A stretch of 64,000 bases of DNA from Naegleria gruberi (lineage: Eukaryota): NCBI GenBank assembly GCA_000004985.1, contig GG738848.1; one strand, written 5' to 3'. Below the pieces are notes generated by a model that saw only the letters and a program-made list of their open reading frames with translations, was not told where the DNA came from and ran no database searches. The translations under genes were made by a program, and so were the position numbers. Positions 12,662 through 29,900 of the stretch are shown here, piece by piece (within the stretch, counting starts at the first letter, position 1; each line of letters starts with the position of its first letter).

Positions 12662-13201
12662 ATGGGACAAAATTCATCTTCTCACGATCGACACGAAAGT
12701 AAGAGGAAGAAACAAGCTAAAGTTGTCATGATTGGATTGGACTTTGCTGGAAAGTCATCAATAATGTACAAGATGAAGCAAAAGAAGAATCTTCCATCGA
12801 CAGTGCCTACTCTTGGGTTTAATGTTGAAGTGTTAAAGTATAAGAGAGTTGTGTTCACATTGTTTGATATTGGTGGATTATTCCTCAAGACCAAACAGTT
12901 GGCACAACATTATTTCGAGAAGAATCAAGCTGTGATTTTTGTGATTGACTCAACTGATAAGGCCAGAATGAATGATGCCAAACAAACTTTGCATTTGATC
13001 ATGGATGATCAATTGGTTTCTAATTGTAAATTATTGGTATTGGCTAACAAGCAAGATCTACCAGATGCTATGAGTGTAGATGATGTTTCGAGAGAATTAA
13101 ACTTGATGGATATCAAGCAAACTTGGTCGATTCAAGGTTCGAGTGCCAAGACAGGTATTGGATTATTGGAAGGACTTGACTGGTTATCAAAGAATGTGTA
13201 A
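12662..13201 (+). CDS. ARF-like (ARL) small GTPase with an N-myristoylation motif. Switch II reads DIGGL: Leu replaces the catalytic Gln
   Basis: MGQNSS N-terminus, then the P-loop GLDFAGKSS, TVPTLGFNVE (switch I), FDIGG (G3), LANKQDL (G4) and SSAK (G5), in a 179-aa single exon. Confidence 0.85.
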   Translation: MGQNSSSHDRHESKRKKQAKVVMIGLDFAGKSSIMYKMKQKKNLPSTVPTLGFNVEVLKYKRVVFTLFDIGGLFLKTKQLAQHYFEKNQAVIFVIDSTDKARMNDAKQTLHLIMDDQLVSNCKLLVLANKQDLPDAMSVDDVSRELNLMDIKQTWSIQGSSAKTGIGLLEGLDWLSKNV

Positions 13202-16887: not shown

Positions 16888-18057
16888 CTATTGATAGGTA
16901 ATCAAATATTCAGGATAGGCTTGCTTATTATCATAGACAATAATTTCCTGTCCTCCCCATCCAGTAACACTATCAAATCCCTGCGGAGCAATCTTAATCG
17001 TCTGCATCATATTCATATTAGCATCATATGAATGACCAACAAGTACTCTCACAATGAACATTCTTCCATTATTACTATTACCAGCATATCCGAGAGAGTA
17101 GGAAGCATTGGGACTAAAGTAAATTCCATTTCCAAATTTCCCACTATTACTCACTCTTGCATCGAAACCTTCCTTGGCAATTAAATCAGCAAATTGTTGT
17201 TGAGTTCCGTGGAAGAGTTGTTTCTCATTGTGGTTGGCTTTCATGTTCTGCTTTTGAAGACTGTACCAATTCCATCGAATGTAATTTTCAATTCGTTCAA
17301 TTTTGAGAATGGTTTTACCTGTGGAGGTTGAGGAAAAGAGCTGAGAACAATGTTGAAACTCTTTGGAGGAGGTGGAAAGTGTTACTATTCGAAAGTGTGG
17401 TTTCATGAGAGGGTTTTTGGAGAGTTTGGGAGGATTTTCCCATTCCTTTGGCCATGAAGAGATGCAATTCACTTGTGTGTTGCTGGTTGAATTGGTTGCC
17501 TTGCTTTCATGTATAAATGAATAGCAATGTGAAATATCTCCAGATAGATACTTTTGACAGGAAGTAGCATCTTGGCATGTATGGAAATAGTGAAGGCAAT
17601 GCTCTTTCTGTTGGAGTTTAGTACACTTTGAATCGTATTTGCATGGATGGACGAATCTGGATCTGTGAACAGAATCAGTAATCATGGAACAGTTTGCTCC
17701 CTTCTTACATGGATGATAATACTTTTCACCATGATCAACATGATCCCTATAGTTTGTTTTGGTACATTTATCCCAATGTTTACAAGGCACCTTGTCTTTT
17801 AATTCATTAACTTTGGTTGAAGTTGATGATTTCGTTGTTTTGCTGCAGCTTGGTGATGAGGAATGGCTGGTTGTTGGTGTTGTACTTGTGGATTGGATTG
17901 TGGATTGTTGTGGTTTGACGTAATTGACAGGAAGAAATTGTGGATTAGCTCCTGTTGTCATGTATCCAACAATTTGTGGCACCGTTCCTTGAGGGATATT
18001 TTGTGGAGGTTGGGATGAAACACTTGGTGTGGGCAATGTTGGATTGTTTTGCTTCAT
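16888..18057 (-). CDS. PARP catalytic-domain protein with three tandem PBZ-type (C2H2, PAR-binding) zinc fingers. Catalytic residues are H-Y-E
   Basis: PBZ-like fingers CKHWDKCTKTNYRDHVDHGEKYYHP, CKKGANCSMITDSVHRSRFVHP and CKYDSKCTKLQQKEHCLHYFH, against the consensus C-K-Y-G-x2-C-x6-9-H-x3-5-[FY]-x-H. The ART fold reads ILKIERIENYIRWNWY...LFHGT...GIYFS...GQEIIVYD. It is single-exon and lies head-to-head with a paralogue 86 bp away. Confidence 0.75.
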   Translation of the reverse strand: MKQNNPTLPTPSVSSQPPQNIPQGTVPQIVGYMTTGANPQFLPVNYVKPQQSTIQSTSTTPTTSHSSSPSCSKTTKSSTSTKVNELKDKVPCKHWDKCTKTNYRDHVDHGEKYYHPCKKGANCSMITDSVHRSRFVHPCKYDSKCTKLQQKEHCLHYFHTCQDATSCQKYLSGDISHCYSFIHESKATNSTSNTQVNCISSWPKEWENPPKLSKNPLMKPHFRIVTLSTSSKEFQHCSQLFSSTSTGKTILKIERIENYIRWNWYSLQKQNMKANHNEKQLFHGTQQQFADLIAKEGFDARVSNSGKFGNGIYFSPNASYSLGYAGNSNNGRMFIVRVLVGHSYDANMNMMQTIKIAPQGFDSVTGWGGQEIIVYDNKQAYPEYLITYQ

Positions 18058-18143
18058 TTTTTTGATAGTGTGAATTGAGAATTTTCCATGTCAGCCTTTT
18101 CTGACAAGCGCAAAGATTAAAAAAAATATTAACAACTGACACG

Positions 18144-19310
18144 ATGCATCAGCCAAACAATCCGAATGGCACAAATAATAATAATTGGCAACAGTTTCCG
18201 CAACAGCAAATCTATTTGCATCAGCAACCACAAGGTCAAGTATTTCCGCACCAACAATTACCAATGTATTGTCAACCGTACCAAATTATTCAAATTCCTA
18301 ATGAAATGATTCAACCATCAACACAACAAGTTTCATCTCAACAAACAATGCTACCAAACGTGATGCTCAGTTCCACTTCAACTTGTCCACAAGATTTTCA
18401 CAATCAAGTACCAGAAAGAGAGGATTTTTGCACTGATTGGAGATTATGTTCTGAAACAAAAGATCAGAAACACAGATGCACCAAAAGACATTTATGTACC
18501 ATCAAGAATTGCTCCAAAACTAGTGATAAGGTTCATGTTGGCAGATTCTTGCATTATTGTAAATATGGTGAAAAGTGTCGTCACATAGATGATGATAATC
18601 ATAATCATAACTTTATTCATCCATGCAAGTATAAGGGAGATTGTAAAAAGCTTGGAGACATTATGCACAGAATTTTCTTTACCCATCCAACAATAGCTGA
18701 CAATGGCTTGTATCCAAGATCTTGGGGAAAGGTGTTGGACGATCATTGTAAATGTGTTAAGCTTTCACATAGCTCTTCAGAATTCAAAGAGGTAGAGAAA
18801 ACATTTATTCAAAGAATTAATCACAGCCATCCAACTGCTCAAGTAATCGACATTGAAAGAGTGGAAAATGCCAAGTTATGGAGAGCTTTCTCAATTAAGA
18901 AATCAGAAACCATTCACAAGAATCAAAATATCAAAGCTGAAAATCAAGTGAAAACACTCTACCATGGAGCTGAAGAAACAGCAGTCGATGCCATCACCAA
19001 AACAGGATTTGATTATAGACGATGCCAAGTTGGACATTATGGACATGGAAATTATTTTGCAGTCAATGCTAGTTATAGTCATGGTTATGCCAAGCCATCA
19101 ACTTCTGATGGTAGTAGAAGGATAATTGTTTGTAAGGTAGTTGTTGGAGAATCTCTCAGAGTAGCACAGAAGGATAATACTCTGAGAAGACCTCAGGATA
19201 AGACAACAGGTAAAATGTATGATTCAGTACAGGGAGGACCAACAGGAACTGAATATGTAGTATTCGATAACGAATCTCCATATCCTGGATATATTGTAAT
19301 TTACAAATAA
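18144..19310 (+). CDS. PARP catalytic-domain protein with tandem PBZ-type zinc fingers (paralogue of 16888..18057). Catalytic residues are H-Y-E
   Basis: PBZ-like fingers include CKYGEKCRHIDDDNHNHNFIHP and CKYKGDCKKLGDIMHRIFFTHP. The catalytic region reads VIDIERVENAKLWRAF...LYHGA...GNYFA...GTEYVVFD. Confidence 0.75.
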   Translation: MHQPNNPNGTNNNNWQQFPQQQIYLHQQPQGQVFPHQQLPMYCQPYQIIQIPNEMIQPSTQQVSSQQTMLPNVMLSSTSTCPQDFHNQVPEREDFCTDWRLCSETKDQKHRCTKRHLCTIKNCSKTSDKVHVGRFLHYCKYGEKCRHIDDDNHNHNFIHPCKYKGDCKKLGDIMHRIFFTHPTIADNGLYPRSWGKVLDDHCKCVKLSHSSSEFKEVEKTFIQRINHSHPTAQVIDIERVENAKLWRAFSIKKSETIHKNQNIKAENQVKTLYHGAEETAVDAITKTGFDYRRCQVGHYGHGNYFAVNASYSHGYAKPSTSDGSRRIIVCKVVVGESLRVAQKDNTLRRPQDKTTGKMYDSVQGGPTGTEYVVFDNESPYPGYIVIYK

Positions 19311-19721: not shown

Positions 19722-20555
19722 GGTTTTGAGAATTGCATAAGGCACACAGTATTTATTCTGTTTGTTGGGGAGTAAAGAATGACAAAATGTTTGTGGTATT
19801 TTAATAAATTTTAATGCCTTGTTCAACTATTGATATTGAACATGTAGCGAATCTTAATTAATCATTTTTATGATGAGCAGTTCAGTCAATAATTGACTCC
19901 AAAGAAGCTGTTTGGAATATTGGAAAGAATGTGAGAAGCACCAGGTTAGATTGCCAATTAAAGTGGCCAAAATTGATAAGTAAACTTGAACTAGTGCAAA
20001 AAACAAAAAGACTACAGGGATGAGGTGCATTCATCGTGATATGGCCGTAGCCATTCATTAATGTAAACTAAGGTTTTTCAAAATGTTCAAAAATTGCAAG
20101 TTAATTCACTTTAAGAGGATTGTTAGCGATCAACTACTTTGAAATAATTAAGATAAATCATTTATTCCAATACCATTTCCAACACAATGCACCATCTGCA
20201 ATTATTGCCCTCATGGAATCCCTATTTTCAGTTTCGAATCATCAAAATCTCTTTCTCCAGCTCGACGTTATAGAATTTAAGGGAATGGGTGTAAGCTATT
20301 ACTCAATCCGTTGATTCGTATTCTTAATATTTAAAATTGTACAAATATCATTCTCTCACATGATTTTGAAGTTTCCAAGAGGATGAAATGGCACTCATTT
20401 CTTGCGCAAATTCCACAGATCAATAATTAGTGCTCACGACAGCGCTTTGGTTTCGGGTACAGAATCCACCATAAATGGCATTCACACTAACCATTATGCA
20501 TTTTCAATCACAAAAAAACAACTTTACTGTATTATTACAAATAACAAATAACAAA

Positions 20556-21194
20556 ATGGTCTACAAAATTTATGGTGCTGCTCAATCTACTTGCGTTCAA
20601 CGTGTTTTGACAACAATCAAGGAGAAAGGTTTAGAATATGAACTTGTTCCTGTTGATTTAATGAAGGGAGAACACAAGTCACCATCCTACTTGGAAAAGC
20701 ATCCATTTGGTGTCATTCCAGTCTTGGAAGATGATGGTTTCTTGATTTATGAATCTCGTGCTATCTGTCGTTATTTGGAAGCCAAGCATAAGAGCCAAGG
20801 AACTGAACTCATTCCAACAGAGCTCAAAGCTTTGGGTTTATTTGAACAAGGTGCTTCCATTGAAACTGCTTACTTTGATTCAAATGCTTCTGGTTTAGTT
20901 TTCGAAAAGTTATTTAAGGGAATGATGGGATATGGAGCTGCAGATGAAGCTCGTGTCAAACAATTGAGTGAAAAGTTAGCACTCAATTTGGATGCCTATG
21001 AAAAAGTGTTGGCTAAACAAGAATTCATTGGTGGAAATCAATTTACCTTAGCCGATTTGTATCACTTACCATATGGAAACTTGTTGTTCGCTATTGGATT
21101 GGGCAATTTATTGTTGGATCGTCCACTTGTTAAAGCTTGGTGGGAAAAGATTTCAGCAAGACCTTCATGGAAAGCTGTCACAGGACAACAATAA
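20556..21194 (+). CDS. Glutathione S-transferase (cytosolic; thioredoxin-like N-domain with an ESRAI motif), single exon
   Basis: MVYKIYGAAQSTCVQRVLTTIKEKGLEYELVPVDL...HPFGVIPVLEDDGFLIYESRAICRYL is the GST N-terminal domain. The C-terminal helical domain follows. The first ATG of the track ORF is upstream, but the conserved fold starts at M20556. Confidence 0.8.
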   Translation: MVYKIYGAAQSTCVQRVLTTIKEKGLEYELVPVDLMKGEHKSPSYLEKHPFGVIPVLEDDGFLIYESRAICRYLEAKHKSQGTELIPTELKALGLFEQGASIETAYFDSNASGLVFEKLFKGMMGYGAADEARVKQLSEKLALNLDAYEKVLAKQEFIGGNQFTLADLYHLPYGNLLFAIGLGNLLLDRPLVKAWWEKISARPSWKAVTGQQ

Positions 21195-22018: not shown

Positions 22019-23221
22019 ATGTCTCAACAAAACAATACTGAATCATCTGCTGCTACCACTGCTGCTACTCAACCAAGCGTTCCTGCCTATAATTTGTTAG
22101 GAAGTTCTGGATTGAGAGTATTCCCATTATGTTTGGGAACCATGGGTTTCGGCCAAAATCCAATTACCAAGACTTTTGTAAGTTTGAAGAGTTTCGAATA
22201 TTTTATTAACTTGAGCTTTGTAGGGTATTGGTGGAAGTGATGAAGAAAGTGAAAAGATTCTTCTCAAGTATTTGGAAATTGGAGGAAACTTTATTGATAC
22301 GTAAGTTGAACATTTTCTATTCGAAACTCATTGAAACATAGTGCCAACTTCTATGCTATCGGAAAGAGTGAAGAATTGATTGGTAATCTCATTAAGAAAC
22401 ACAATCTCAATCGTGATGAATTGATCATTGCCACCAAATTCTCACTTCCAATGACTCAACATGCCAACGGTGGTGGAAATCACAAGAAGAATTTAATTCA
22501 ATCACTCGATGCCTCCCTCAAGAGATTGCAATTGGATTATGTTGATTTATTCTATGTCCACTTTTGGGATTTCACCGTTGATGCCAAGCAATTAATCATT
22601 TGGTTAGACGAAATTGTTAAAAGTGGTAAAGTTTTGCATGTTGCTGTTAGTGATATGCCTGCTTATCAAGTTGCCATTGCTAATACATATGCTGAAGATC
22701 ATGGATTGACTAAATTTGTTGCCTATCAAGGAAGATATTCATTGGTTGATAGAGCTTTGGAACAGGAGATTATTCCAATGACTAAATCTTTGGATCTTGG
22801 AACTGTTCCTTGGGGAGTACTTGGTGCTGGTAAATTGACTGGAAAGAAATTGAGAAATCAAGAAGAAAAATCCGAAACTGAAAGAAAGTTTGTTGAAATG
22901 AGTCAAACAGATTATGATATTCAAGATGTTGTCATTGAAATTGCAAAGGAATTGAATAGAACTCCATCACAAGTTGCCATTAATTGGATGATTTCTCAAG
23001 GAGTGTCAAGTGTCTTGATTGGACCAAGAACTTTGGAACAATTTGAAGATAACATTAAGAGTTTGGAATTTAGATTAAATCAAGAACAATTGAAGAGATT
23101 GAATCAAGTTAGTGCAAACTCTCCTTCATTGATTTTCCCTTACAATTTCATTGGACAAGATACTCAATCGGCTAGTATGTTATACTTTAATGGAAACAAG
23201 TTCTCTATCAATAAAAAATAA
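22019..23221 (+). CDS. Aldo-keto reductase (aryl-alcohol dehydrogenase / Kv-beta-like AKR), 3 exons: 22019..22177, 22224..22300, 22342..23221
   Basis: Track ORFs 22019..22240 and 22331..23221 join through a short middle exon (GIGGSDEESEKILLKYLEIGGNFIDT) via gtaagt...ttgtag and gtaagt...acatag introns, giving 1116 nt or 371 aa. AKR motifs: GTMGFG, LDYVDLFYVHFWD, IGPRT. Confidence 0.85.
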
Positions 23222-26125: not shown

Positions 26126-26628
26126 TCTTGTTGATTTATATAAATTAATAATATTTCAAAATAGATTGTCGGTGAAGATGGTTAATTAAAAAAATAAAAA
26201 TTAATAAAAAAAATATGTAACGGCTAGTTCTTTTGTCCAATCGAACTCTACCAAGCGCTCGAATATTTTTTCACCAGCAAAATAACGCTCAACAAAAATG
26301 AAGAGAATCCCCTGCAGCTTATTTTTAAATTCTTTCGCAGCTGCCAAAAATCCAGTAAGTTCAAGAAGAAAAAAACAAGAAAATTGAAACTCTAAAGATT
26401 GGCTCAATTACATTACCAAGAAATTGTTTGCGTGCGAATAAGAGTTGGAAAAGGGTTGTAGAATTGAATCCGAGAGTGAATTATTCAATTTTACATCATC
26501 ACGAATTTTCATCTATTAATTGTCAAGAAATTAATAAGAAGAATAACATCATCGTTGGCATTAACAATCAACAAAGAGATTTTCATAGCACATCCACATC
26601 GTCATCATCATCAACTAATAACAACAAG

Positions 26629-27465
26629 ATGGAACAATCATCACATAATAGTTTACAAGCTGCCAATAGATTGGTTTGCTTTGTTGAGGGAAATATTGGA
26701 AGTGGTAAGAGTACAACTGTCAAGGAGTTACAACTCTTCAATGATAATAGTGTTTCTGAGCAACAGAAAACAGAAGAGTGGACTCTCCTCAGCAAGTACT
26801 ATGAAGGTGGTATGAAGAATGACCTCACTTTAAATTATGAACTTCAAAAACAAATTGCAAACACTTACTTTAAACATTATTTCAAGTATAGCTTCCTTCC
26901 TCATGGTGGTGTTGGTATTGGTGACTTGTTTGATGACAAGACATTACAATCCATGATGAAAAAACATGAAAAATACTTGAGAATTCACCCAAATACCAAG
27001 TTACCTGAAACCATCTCACTTCCTTCAACTAGCTCACAACCTACTCAACCATCTTCTAGTAATGTATATAATATCTTCTTTGAAGGCATCCTTTCCTCTA
27101 GTGGCGTATTTACTGTCATGGAATATAACAAGGGAATGATTAGAGAAGAAGATTATGTGGACTTGTGTAAAAATTATGATGCCCTTCAAAAAGGAGTAAC
27201 TGGTCATATGGCCTTTTATTTGAAACCAACCAATAATGTTGATGTTTGTTTGGAGAGAATCAAGGTCAGAAGAAGAGAATTCGAGAGTGTAATTGAAAAA
27301 CCATATTTGAAAACAATTGAAGAACATTATGACTGCTTTATGGACAAAGTGGCCACTAAGATTCCAGTATTTGTCATTGACAATTCAACGATGGATGCTA
27401 AGGAAACTGCTGCACTAATTTTGGATGTACTCAGTGCTGTCAGAAAAGATATTAAATACATGTAA
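26629..27465 (+). CDS. Deoxynucleoside kinase (dCK/dGK/TK2 family)
   Basis: FVEGNIGSGKST P-loop and the RIKVRRREFE lid motif (RxxxRxxE). The first in-frame ATG is at about 26629 (MEQSSHNS...). The track ORF start at 26428 is a TTG. There is a low-complexity insert (STSSQPTQPSSS). Confidence 0.7.
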   Translation: MEQSSHNSLQAANRLVCFVEGNIGSGKSTTVKELQLFNDNSVSEQQKTEEWTLLSKYYEGGMKNDLTLNYELQKQIANTYFKHYFKYSFLPHGGVGIGDLFDDKTLQSMMKKHEKYLRIHPNTKLPETISLPSTSSQPTQPSSSNVYNIFFEGILSSSGVFTVMEYNKGMIREEDYVDLCKNYDALQKGVTGHMAFYLKPTNNVDVCLERIKVRRREFESVIEKPYLKTIEEHYDCFMDKVATKIPVFVIDNSTMDAKETAALILDVLSAVRKDIKYM

Positions 27466-27576: not shown

Positions 27577-29900
27577 CTACGAAGATAATCTGGCTATCAG
27601 CTCTGGTTTTATCTTGTTAACTTTGTTCTTGAATTCTTTGGTTTCACCATCCCTCAAAACGAAAATAATGTCCAATCCTCCATCAACGGTTTCTTCTGCT
27701 GTAATCAGGAATTTCACATCCTTCTTAGCATGCATACATCTCAAAACAAGGAATGGTTGGAGAAGAAGTGGTGAAGCATCAGTACTCAAAGCTTGAGTTG
27801 TTGACTTTTTGACACCTGTATCGATGGAAAGTTGAGGTTTCTTGGATGGTCTTGCTAAGCTGATATCTAAATTTGAGCAACTAGCAGAAGGTTTCAAAGG
27901 TTGGGTAGCTCTTGTTGGTTTGACATCTACTTTGCTTTCATCATCACTCTTGGCAGAAAGATCAGAATCAGATGACATTTCTCTTGACATTTCTTTTGAC
28001 ATTTCTCTAGACATTTCACTAACTGTAGCATTACCTGGATTAAATAATTGACTACTACTTGTAGGAAGTTTAATATCCTTCTTCTTGGATTCTACCTTGA
28101 AATGACAATCATACTGCTTGAGAATGTCAACAAGGATTCTTCCAATGATTTTGTGTAAGTTAGTAATGTGTCTATTCTTCTCGAAAAATTTATCCATTGT
28201 TAATCTATCCACCATTAATTGAGGTTGATATTGTGGACCCTTAGTCCATCTGTGTTCTCTAATTTGTTTCAAATTTGCTCTAGTCTTTGGATTTGGTTGA
28301 AGCATACCAAATATCAGTTCTTGGCATTCCATGGAAACTTCAACATCGTCTGGGTAGGTGTATCTCGAATTTTTAACGTCATCAAACATGCTATTCACAT
28401 CTGATGAACAGAATGGTAATTTGGAAGTAACGAAACAATAGAGAATAATACCAGCACTCCAAATATCAATCTTTTCACCTGAATAGACTTTTCCTTCAAT
28501 TTGTTCAGGAGAAAGATGATATAAACTACCAACTAGCTGAGTTGAAAAGAGATCCCAACCCTTTTTGAAAATTCTTGCTTGTCCAAAATCTGTAATCTTT
28601 AAATGGCCTTCATTGTCAAGTAACAAGTTTTCTAAACGTAAATCTCTGTGACAAACTCCCATTTGGTGACAATAACTTAAACCATCAATCAATTGATCAA
28701 AGTAATATCTTGCAAGATTTTCATCAAATGGTTTGTCCTTAAGGTGTTCATAAAGAGATCCACCTCCACAAAGTTCAATAACAAGATAAACATAATCATC
28801 GTCTTCTAAAACTTCGTAGAGTTGGACAACATTCTTGTGTTTGAGCATTTGCATTGATTGGATTTCTACATCCAATCTTGACATGTCACTGACATTACCC
28901 TTCTTGATGATCTTAATAGCTCTCTTGTTGTTGTAATCGTCAACGTGGTGAGCATATCTTACTACACCATAACCTCCACGTCCAAGAACGTGTGTCATTT
29001 TCCAATCACCAATAATTTTGGCATCAGTGTTTTCAAGTCTCAAAGCTTCGTATTTTGTGATAATGATTTCTCCTAGTTTGGTGAATTCGTGTTGATTTAA
29101 ATAACCATGTCCTTCAATATCATACTCTTCCATTATTCTATCCACCAATTTCTTTAATTTTTGTGCTTCATCATGTGACTCAGTGGTTGGAGAGAGTACA
29201 TCAGCAGGATGTTCTTCATCACTATCAGTATCAAATAAAAGACATTCAAGGTCAATGCCATCCTTTTGAACAGCTCTAAGAATAACCTCTAATTCTTTTC
29301 TAGATATTCTTCCACTTAGAGTGCTGTCAGACTATTGGGAGCAATAAAACAATATAATAACAAAGTAAAGCAATAATATAGATTGGAAGAGTATTAACAA
29401 GATAAATAACAAGCTATAAAACATACCAACTTGAAAAGCCAATCCAAAAATCTCTTTCTTCCTTCTTTACAGAACATTTCCTTGTGGAGAGCTGGTAATA
29501 ATTCAAAGGTAACACGATCCTTTACAAGGTCTGACATGGTATCGTGAACTCTCTTACATGAAGCTGAAGTTGGAGATTTGGCTGGAGAAGAGAAAAACTT
29601 TACAGAAAACTTCTCAGCAGATGTTGGAGAGACACTACCAGAAGCGAGTGATGAAAGGGAATGTTGGGAATCAATGGAACGATGATGAGACTCGTGAGTG
29701 TCAAGTCCTTCAGAATGACTGTTTGATCTACCAAAGAGCTTGCTAATGATGGAAGCAACATCACTTGTTGCAGAGTGGTGAGCATCTTGATGATGTTTTT
29801 CCTTGTCTTCAGTTTCCTTTTCTACTTGTTGTTTGATACGTTGCACAAACTTGTCCATTTCTGCAAATTCCTTGTAATTCAATTTTCCTTCCTTTCCCAA
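27577..29900 (-). CDS. Ser/Thr protein kinase (CAMK/AMPK-related catalytic domain) with an upstream EF-hand-like N-terminal region. 2 exons: 29427..29900 and 27577..29331 (95-bp intron)
   Basis: The kinase domain has LGRGGYGVV, AIKIIKK, HRDLRLENLLL, DFGQA and SPE. ORF 29394..29900 (MGKEGKLNYKEFAEM...RFLDWLFKL) joins in frame via gtatgt...ccaatag to SDSTLSGRISRKELEVILRAV...YDIEGHGYLNQHEFTKL, which contains EF-hand-like loops, upstream of the kinase. There is a coding 12-nt repeat (SREMSKEMSREMS) at about 27950-28030. The C-terminal KA1-like tail is tentative. Confidence 0.75.

Follow-up and report, generated by a model that had tools for sequence, protein, structure and literature searches.

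Fusions of PBZ zinc fingers to a PARP catalytic domain within one polypeptide have been described in Dictyostelium discoideum, Entamoeba histolytica, Capsaspora owczarzaki and Branchiostoma (section 3.4 of PMC4245714; PMC4030884), both of these texts citing Ahel et al., 2008 as the source for PBZ-containing PARPs. A similar layout, in which tandem N-terminal zinc fingers precede a C-terminal ADP-ribosyltransferase (ART) domain, is found in human PARP12 (also in PARP7 and PARP13), and long finger arrays are joined to PARG, an eraser partner, in proteins of the rotifers Adineta vaga and Rotaria (PMC4245714). Here, we describe two adjacent genes, A and B, in a window of 64,000 nucleotides (64 kb) from contig GG738848.1 of the heterolobosean amoeba Naegleria gruberi (assembly GCA_000004985.1). 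In both proteins, a disordered N-terminus leads into an uninterrupted array of four CCHH fingers, and the PARP domain lies at the C-terminal end. Like the published PBZ-PARPs, A and B thus combine fingers and PARP domain in one chain; compared by description only, and as far as the published descriptions go, they differ from them in three respects: (i), the four fingers are contiguous and lie beyond the reach of the Pfam PBZ model; (ii), the catalytic domain is PARP12/15-like and comes with no Pfam WGR or regulatory match; (iii), the host belongs to the Heterolobosea, for which a literature search found no published PBZ-PARP. The original prediction, made from the DNA letters of this locus, had presented the fusion as a novelty on the grounds that animal PBZ modules are not fused to PARP domains. 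This framing does not hold, given that the source is a heterolobosean amoeba and that fusions have been published, that of Branchiostoma included (PMC4245714, PMC4030884).

We consider it probable that A and B are a linked, anciently duplicated gene pair, in which a disordered N-terminus is followed by a four-finger CCHH reader and a PARP12/14/15-like writer. The two single-exon genes are divergent, 86 bp apart and exactly where they had been predicted (Table 1); they are also paralogues as proposed, with 32% BLASTP identity over 378 columns (E 3e-46). They are real genes and not chance open reading frames (ORFs), because orthologues occur in N. lovaniensis, N. fowleri and Willaertia magna (42-59% identity in the case of A) and because the zinc ligands are invariant, at 16/16 positions in nine family sequences (orthologues and paralogues) that share 34-54% identity. 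The ORF of A is identical over its full 389 aa to NCBI XP_002682164. For B, the C-terminal 215 residues are identical to XP_002682002, a NCBI/JGI model of 215 aa that represents 55% of the ORF and has its first residue, Met174, within finger 4. Judged by alignment, the 388-aa ORF is the better model and the public one is truncated, since the B orthologues (N. lovaniensis, N. fowleri, Willaertia magna and environmental assemblies) can be aligned through the entire finger region; the missing part, 18144-18665, hides the N-terminus and the fingers. The N-terminus itself is of low complexity and disordered, residues 1-76 of B having a per-residue confidence (pLDDT) <50 in an AlphaFold2 model. As a separate observation, the A-type protein of N. 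lovaniensis (P0010) carries at aa ~25-60 an extension (…REVIHLLHTQFPHVNESTIQTLLEQSNYEKDQVLTVLQNM) that, by eye only, resembles a ubiquitin-binding helix bundle of the CUE/UBA type; Pfam gives no match to it and it is missing in N. gruberi A.

The C-terminal domains match Pfam PF00644 with 72 bits (A) and 82.7 bits (B), against a gathering cut-off of 26.7. Among PDB sequences, phmmer places PARP12 nearest (2pqf, E 9e-21 with B as the query), followed by PARP15, PARP14, the tankyrases, PARP10 and PARP4, and does not reach PARP1 at E<=0.01. B was modelled with AlphaFold2 from an alignment of 41 sequences, and its ART domain (aa 200-388) reaches pLDDT >90; with Foldseek the model retrieves PARP12/15/14/10 and tankyrase at E 1e-16 to 2e-18 and target-normalised template-modelling (TM) scores of 0.73-0.88, with PARP12 and PARP15 at E ~2e-18 and TM 0.84-0.88. 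PARP12 is the nearest solved catalytic domain (TM ~0.85), and the B domain is, as modelled, an ART fold of the PARP12/14/15-like type. The motifs on which the original prediction relied are present (CKYGEKC...HNHNFIH in the fingers, GIYF and GNYF, QEIIVYD and TEYVVFD), with the exception of HGT, which occurs in A (LFHGT) and not in B (LYHGA). MAFFT put gaps wrongly around the triad Glu, and its alignment was replaced by an ungapped register with YPEY as the anchor and by a hidden Markov model (HMM) alignment to a PARP1 fragment, confirmed to be identical to PDB PARP1 chains. At the positions of PARP1 H862, G863, Y896, S904 and Y907, A and B then have the very same residues. The Glu (E371 in A, E370 in B), which immediately precedes the [YI][IV]V[YF]D strand, falls in ungapped register with the Ile of PARP12 and the Leu of human PARP15 and, via the family HMM, on PARP1 E988. 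These alignments and the model support a complete H-Y-E triad with the other NAD+ contacts kept in both proteins. The PARP assignment is borne out in this way by the PF00644 score, the predicted fold and the triad register. The Glu is nevertheless not universal in the family, because a ten-finger homologue of A from a JGI metagenome (P0011) has His at the third triad position in the YPEY-anchored register (…AEKHTIVYEN…).

Retaining the triad does not by itself settle the chemistry. It is quite possible, at somewhat less than an even chance in our judgement, that A and B are mono-ADP-ribosyltransferases despite their H-Y-E, in which case there would be no self-propagating loop of poly(ADP-ribose) (PAR) and the fingers would at most read PAR made by others. 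Indeed, the closest sequences and folds are those of the mono-ART group PARP12/15/14/10, PARP1 stays out of reach of phmmer at the above threshold, and A and B have no helical or regulatory domain. In addition, both proteins have Tyr (ASYS, against VSKS in PARP1) at the position of PARP1 K903, a residue that contacts the acceptor. On the other side, tankyrases, which have no helical domain, make polymer, and PARP12 is an H-Y-I enzyme while A and B keep the Glu, as do A-type and B-type orthologues alike. Nearly all clade 3 PARPs are without the triad Glu, which is replaced by I/L/V/M/T/S, a single member retaining it, and most have Pro at the -2 position (PMC2964712); A, B and most orthologues have the Glu, and Gly at -2 in place of Pro. 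The features that define the clade 3 mono-ARTs PARP7, 10, 12, 14 and 15, Glu loss and Pro at -2, are therefore not those of A and B, which, from these residues, have the appearance of PARP12/14/15 relatives that retain the Glu.

The fingers form contiguous arrays with a period of 22 residues and an H-x-C linker, mostly C-x5-C-x7-H-x5-H: five of the eight have exact x5/x7/x5 spacing, the others are x4/x7/x5, x5/x9/x5 or x5/x10/x5, and x6 also occurs among orthologues. AlphaFold2 models the array with a mean pLDDT of 83 (85-92 over the fingers in the B model). Searched with phmmer, the finger region of B returned only noise from the PDB; a profile of 25 single fingers run against 177,635 PDB sequences gave the APLF PBZ (2kqb/2kuo) as the top and sole significant match (E 0.004), the next one lying at E 0.44, and the alignment of either APLF finger to it spans the four ligands and has a deletion of one residue. 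APLF shares with the A/B family the four ligands, CxYG and Hxxx[F/Y]xH, and an (N)-P-x-H turn that is seen in orthologue fingers; it differs by its x6 central spacing, its two linker-separated fingers and its conserved Tyr/Tyr/Arg contacts. The CHFR PBZ can be overlaid with a modelled finger at 1.8 Å over 26 columns, the E-value being non-significant.

From 1.84 billion representatives, a profile of four fingers retrieved 342 proteins at E<=1e-3, of which 143 (P0129-P0271) were covered by a Pfam scan. PF10283, the Pfam PBZ model, is found in 41 of these 143 (29%; best E 2e-43), the partner domains in the 143 being microbial-type PARG (27), PARP (17), EEP (7), a PolyA_pol head (2), WWE (2) and NADAR (1); the 25 commonest families listed for each scan include no classical C2H2 family. 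The same profile matches the PARG proteins of Adineta vaga and Rotaria (E 9e-24 and 5e-17), whose repeats were termed PBZ by Perina et al. 2014 (PMC4245714), and a Pfam-validated PBZ unit of the A. vaga protein (CRYGNDCRNKNDPDHRAKFSH) has the x5/x7/x5 spacing of the Naegleria fingers. These rotifer proteins, with their long C-x5-C-x6/7-H-x5-H arrays, differ from A and B in size (1,900-2,300 aa), in their partner and in that their fingers are often spaced apart. The published PBZ consensus, [K/R]xxCx[F/Y]GxxCxbbxxxxHxxx[F/Y]xH, includes C-x5-C-x7-H-x5-H spacing (PMC4030884), and the fingers of A and B have the PBZ ligand spacing C-x5-C-x6/7-H-x5-H; at its non-ligand positions, Hxxx[F/Y]xH is found in 7/8 fingers, Cx[F/Y] in 3/8, CxYG in 1/8 and the [K/R]xxC lead-in in 0/8. 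The spacing of CCCH fingers (PF00642/Nab2 type, C-x7/8-C-x4/5-C-x3-H) and an HMM match to them were not found in A and B, whose ligands are CCHH. Because of the APLF match, the retrieval of Pfam-validated PBZ arrays and the consensus spacing, we class the fingers as divergent PBZ-like fingers, at profile level. They belong to a wider tandem family with C-x5-C-x6/7-H-x5-H spacing, which comprises at least 342 clusters at 50% identity and up to 16 fingers per protein; it is found in Heterolobosea, the malawimonad Gefionella, bdelloid rotifers and many metagenome contigs, with PARG_cat_microb, PARP, EEP, PolyA_pol, NADAR, WWE, RING, UFD1 and protein kinase as partners.

Several observations weigh against PAR-binding PBZ fingers in A and B. 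PF10283 matches neither protein, nor their finger-only segments, nor ten relatives (E<=1-10), for which reason the assignment relies on custom profiles; an environmental relative (P0129) comes close, with 20.9 bits against a cut-off of 22.7, and the only faint Pfam finger matches are to CCCH half-fingers, far below cut-offs. The three or more PBZ fingers originally predicted per protein are four in each, of PBZ kind by custom profile and not by PF10283; of the Pfam searches that had been proposed, the one for the catalytic domain succeeds in both proteins and the one for PBZ fails, an outcome that the original prediction had itself named as refuting. Moreover, APLF is reported to contact PAR through Y381, Y386 and R387 (PMC6264785), and their equivalents are mostly missing: the first Tyr is present in 3/8 fingers and the second in 0/8, the position of R387 holds Arg in 0/8 and Lys in 5/8, and the full Tyr/Tyr/Arg set is found in 0/8. 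Finger 3 of B also has an acidic DDD loop. The company kept by the wider family nevertheless favours, on balance, an ADP-ribose ligand, because the partners are mainly PARG and PARP, in addition to WWE and NADAR, and PAR may well be what the fingers of A and B bind.

Alternatively, the fingers might bind single-stranded nucleic acid (A-rich RNA, RNA/DNA ends), making A and B nucleic-acid-targeted ARTs that would be functionally nearer to PARP12, PARP7 and PARP13. We hold this to be rather unlikely but a serious rival, because PBZ and CCCH fingers are akin and because like arrays are fused to RNA-type enzymes. PBZ has been reported as nearest in structure to the tandem C3H1 (CCCH) fingers that bind single-stranded RNA (PMC4030884), the faint Pfam matches are all CCCH halves, and the best, if weak, Foldseek match of the finger model is Nab2 zinc fingers 5-7 with polyadenosine RNA; the scarcity of PAR-contact residues points the same way. 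Like arrays are carried by PolyA_pol nucleotidyltransferase heads (Gefionella P0131 and P0153, and a N. lovaniensis gene) and by Angel/CCR4-like EEP domains (7/143), and in N. lovaniensis and N. fowleri the A-type and B-type PARP genes flank genes of the PolyA_pol and EEP kinds. The catalytic domain, too, is nearest to that of PARP12; PARP12 however has CCCH RNA-binding fingers and a WWE domain, whereas A and B have CCHH fingers with PBZ spacing and no WWE, their C-x5-C-x7-H-x5-H being unlike the CCCH pattern C-x8-C-x5-C-x3-H. The sole significant link to the structure database is a PBZ, that of APLF, and the commonest partners of the arrays are PAR enzymes (PARG 27/143, PARP 17/143), WWE and NADAR being present as well.

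A more far-reaching version, which we judge improbable, is that the x7-spaced arrays do not read PAR and are an A-rich RNA or nucleic-acid-end module of co-located end-modifying enzymes, the N. gruberi pair being the ART half. A candidate set of such enzymes (ARTs, PolyA_pol, EEP) lies within 9 kb in both N. lovaniensis and N. fowleri; if this were true, two Glu-retaining ARTs, a PolyA_pol-type nucleotidyltransferase and an Angel/CCR4-like phosphoesterase would form a system for RNA (or DNA-end) ADP-ribosylation and processing.

With the preferred ADP-ribose ligand, the finger array would dock the enzyme on an adenine-nucleotide polymer, most probably PAR, of which Naegleria PARP1-type enzymes or the protein itself could be the source. 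The ART domain would then use NAD+ to ADP-ribosylate nearby targets or itself, such that A and B would act as reader-writers of ADP-ribose signalling, perhaps comparable to the PBZ-PARPs of Dictyostelium and Entamoeba. The analysis itself establishes the gene structure, the domain identities, their conservation, the predicted fold and the register of the triad; in this scheme we infer zinc binding, the finger ligand and catalysis, as well as the poly or mono nature of the products and any role in DNA damage.

The pair was also predicted to have duplicated and diverged in place, around a shared promoter. This is contradicted by synteny in N. lovaniensis, N. fowleri and Willaertia, together with a rough tree. 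N. lovaniensis and N. fowleri have in common the order A-type PARP (-), finger-less Angel/CCR4-like EEP (+), PolyA_pol-type gene (+), second EEP (-), B-type PARP (+) and zf-UBP/SIR2 (NAD+-dependent), with three genes intervening between the paralogues. The second EEP gene has PBZ-like fingers in both species (six in N. lovaniensis P0136) and the PolyA_pol-type gene of N. lovaniensis has at least five, this species having four finger-bearing genes in about 9 kb. In Willaertia, the A-type and B-type genes are on separate contigs. In a neighbour-joining tree without support values, the sequences fall into an A clade and a B clade, each including a Willaertia sequence; the duplication seems to be older than the split between Naegleria and Willaertia. 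The direct head-to-head arrangement, on the other hand, is specific to N. gruberi. Of the intervening genes, the N. gruberi window keeps only the finger-less EEP beside the pair, the two intervening finger genes (PolyA_pol-type and second EEP) being absent from it. In N. lovaniensis, the orthologue of this finger-less EEP gene (L001 4361-5956) is the neighbour of the A-type PARP, and in N. fowleri a candidate orthologue, an Exo_endo_phos gene (L002 5142-6098), has the same position; in both, the orientation relative to A differs. Synteny with these two species ends directly downstream of B, where a glutathione S-transferase gene takes the place of zf-UBP/SIR2.

The 86-bp spacer presumably contains a bidirectional promoter and the 5' untranslated regions. 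Its left part (18058-18094, ~37 nt with a T-run, GTGAATTG and TGTCA) aligns with L001 9920-9956 in N. lovaniensis and L002 9893-9930 in N. fowleri. There, the aligned spacer adjoins the start codon of the EEP gene with fingers, upstream of the B orthologue, and the spacer of the A gene gave no alignment; this suggests, at the sequence level, orthology of the region upstream of B and a rearrangement breakpoint very near a start codon. Could the spacer and its palindrome be a dedicated shared element that co-regulates the pair? The genes are just 86 bp apart, the exact palindrome pattern occurs once in the 64 kb, and the alignable ~37 nt include TGTCA, which overlaps the left arm. The palindrome is present where it had been predicted; its significance, however, is not upheld, as a 5-bp inverted repeat with a 3-10 nt loop is found in 52% of the 86-bp segments of the window and in 56% of spacer shuffles, and the right arm is not conserved in the sister species. 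Shuffles, window sampling and lack of conservation lead us to reject it as a meaningful element. Besides, the divergent partner of B in the sister species is the EEP gene with PBZ-like fingers, so that co-regulation of A and B from one spacer is not conserved, and we regard a dedicated shared element as very unlikely.

Table 1. Coordinates of the PARP gene pair, its domains, the spacer and related loci. Positions refer to the 64-kb window unless a contig of another species is given.
Feature	Position	Strand	Basis or detail
Gene A, NAEGRDRAFT_62784 (XP_002682164, UniProt D2V174)	16888..18057	-	single uninterrupted ORF, 389 aa + stop
A fingers, four tandem PBZ-like CCHH, aa 92-183	17509..17784	-	pattern scan, family alignment; spacings x5/x10/x5, x5/x7/x5, x5/x7/x5, x5/x9/x5
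A PARP/ART domain, aa ~219-389	16891..17403	-	Pfam PF00644 E 6e-20
A triad H283; Y313; E371	17209-17211; 17119-17121; 16945-16947	-	
Spacer, start codon to start codon	18058..18143		86 bp; sequence
Palindrome GTCAGccttttCTGAC	18090..18105		chance-level, unconserved as a palindrome
Gene B, NAEGRDRAFT_30263 (XP_002682002, D2V175)	18144..19310	+	ORF, 388 aa + stop
B fingers, four tandem PBZ-like CCHH, aa 96-181	18429..18686	+	pattern scan, family alignment; spacings x5/x7/x5, x4/x7/x5, x5/x7/x5, x5/x7/x5
B PARP/ART domain, aa ~203-388	18750..19307	+	Pfam PF00644 E 3e-23
B triad H274; Y304; E370	18963-18965; 19053-19055; 19251-19253	+	
Finger-less Angel/CCR4-like EEP gene, 463 aa	15316-16707	+	best in PDB: ANGEL2 E 1e-8, CCR4
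A-type to B-type PARP region, N. lovaniensis	L001 2373-11455		
A-type to B-type PARP region, N. fowleri	L002 2862-11350		

Other genes of the window near the pair encode an Arf-family GTPase (12662-13201), the glutathione S-transferase (20475-21194), an aldo/keto reductase (22331-23221), a deoxynucleoside kinase (26428-27465) and a protein kinase (27577-29148). In Willaertia magna, a glutamine-dependent NAD+ synthase gene (L003 18352-20633) lies ~7 kb downstream of the B-type PARP, probably by coincidence. A and B (62784 and 30263) are absent from the six N. gruberi PARPs of Citarelli et al. 2010 (58866, 71853, 72525, 80022, 80603 and 81181; PMC2964712 supplement). Two of these, the 'unplaced' 72525 and 80603, resemble A and B in that they are short, end in a PARP domain, have H-Y-E and show no N-terminal domain that is recognised; that they might be A and B themselves was rejected, the locus tags and the supplement sequences being different, and they are separate genes. 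A literature search by gene identifiers found no paper that names A or B, and neither was found in the one supplement of Perina 2014 that was checked.

Altogether, the observation at this locus is confirmed and the interpretation first given to it is partly supported: A and B are a real but unsurprising addition to the protist fusions of PBZ fingers and PARP domains, and they overturn no part of current understanding. What is new is, on the one hand, a heterolobosean family in which sequence comparison joins arrays of 4 to 10 PBZ-like fingers to a Glu-retaining PARP12/15-like domain and, on the other hand, the fingers themselves, which are unannotated and invisible to Pfam, and the truncation of the NCBI model of B. 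More broadly, the Pfam PBZ model flags just 41 of the 143 scanned members of what is a large tandem-finger family. If the fingers bind PAR, Heterolobosea would join Amoebozoa, Filasterea and some animals in having a fusion of PBZ reader and PARP writer. Finally, because their PARP12/15-like domain has the catalytic Glu, of which the 2010 survey had just one case in clade 3 (PMC2964712), A and B could show the state of the mono-ART clade before the loss of polymerase chemistry.

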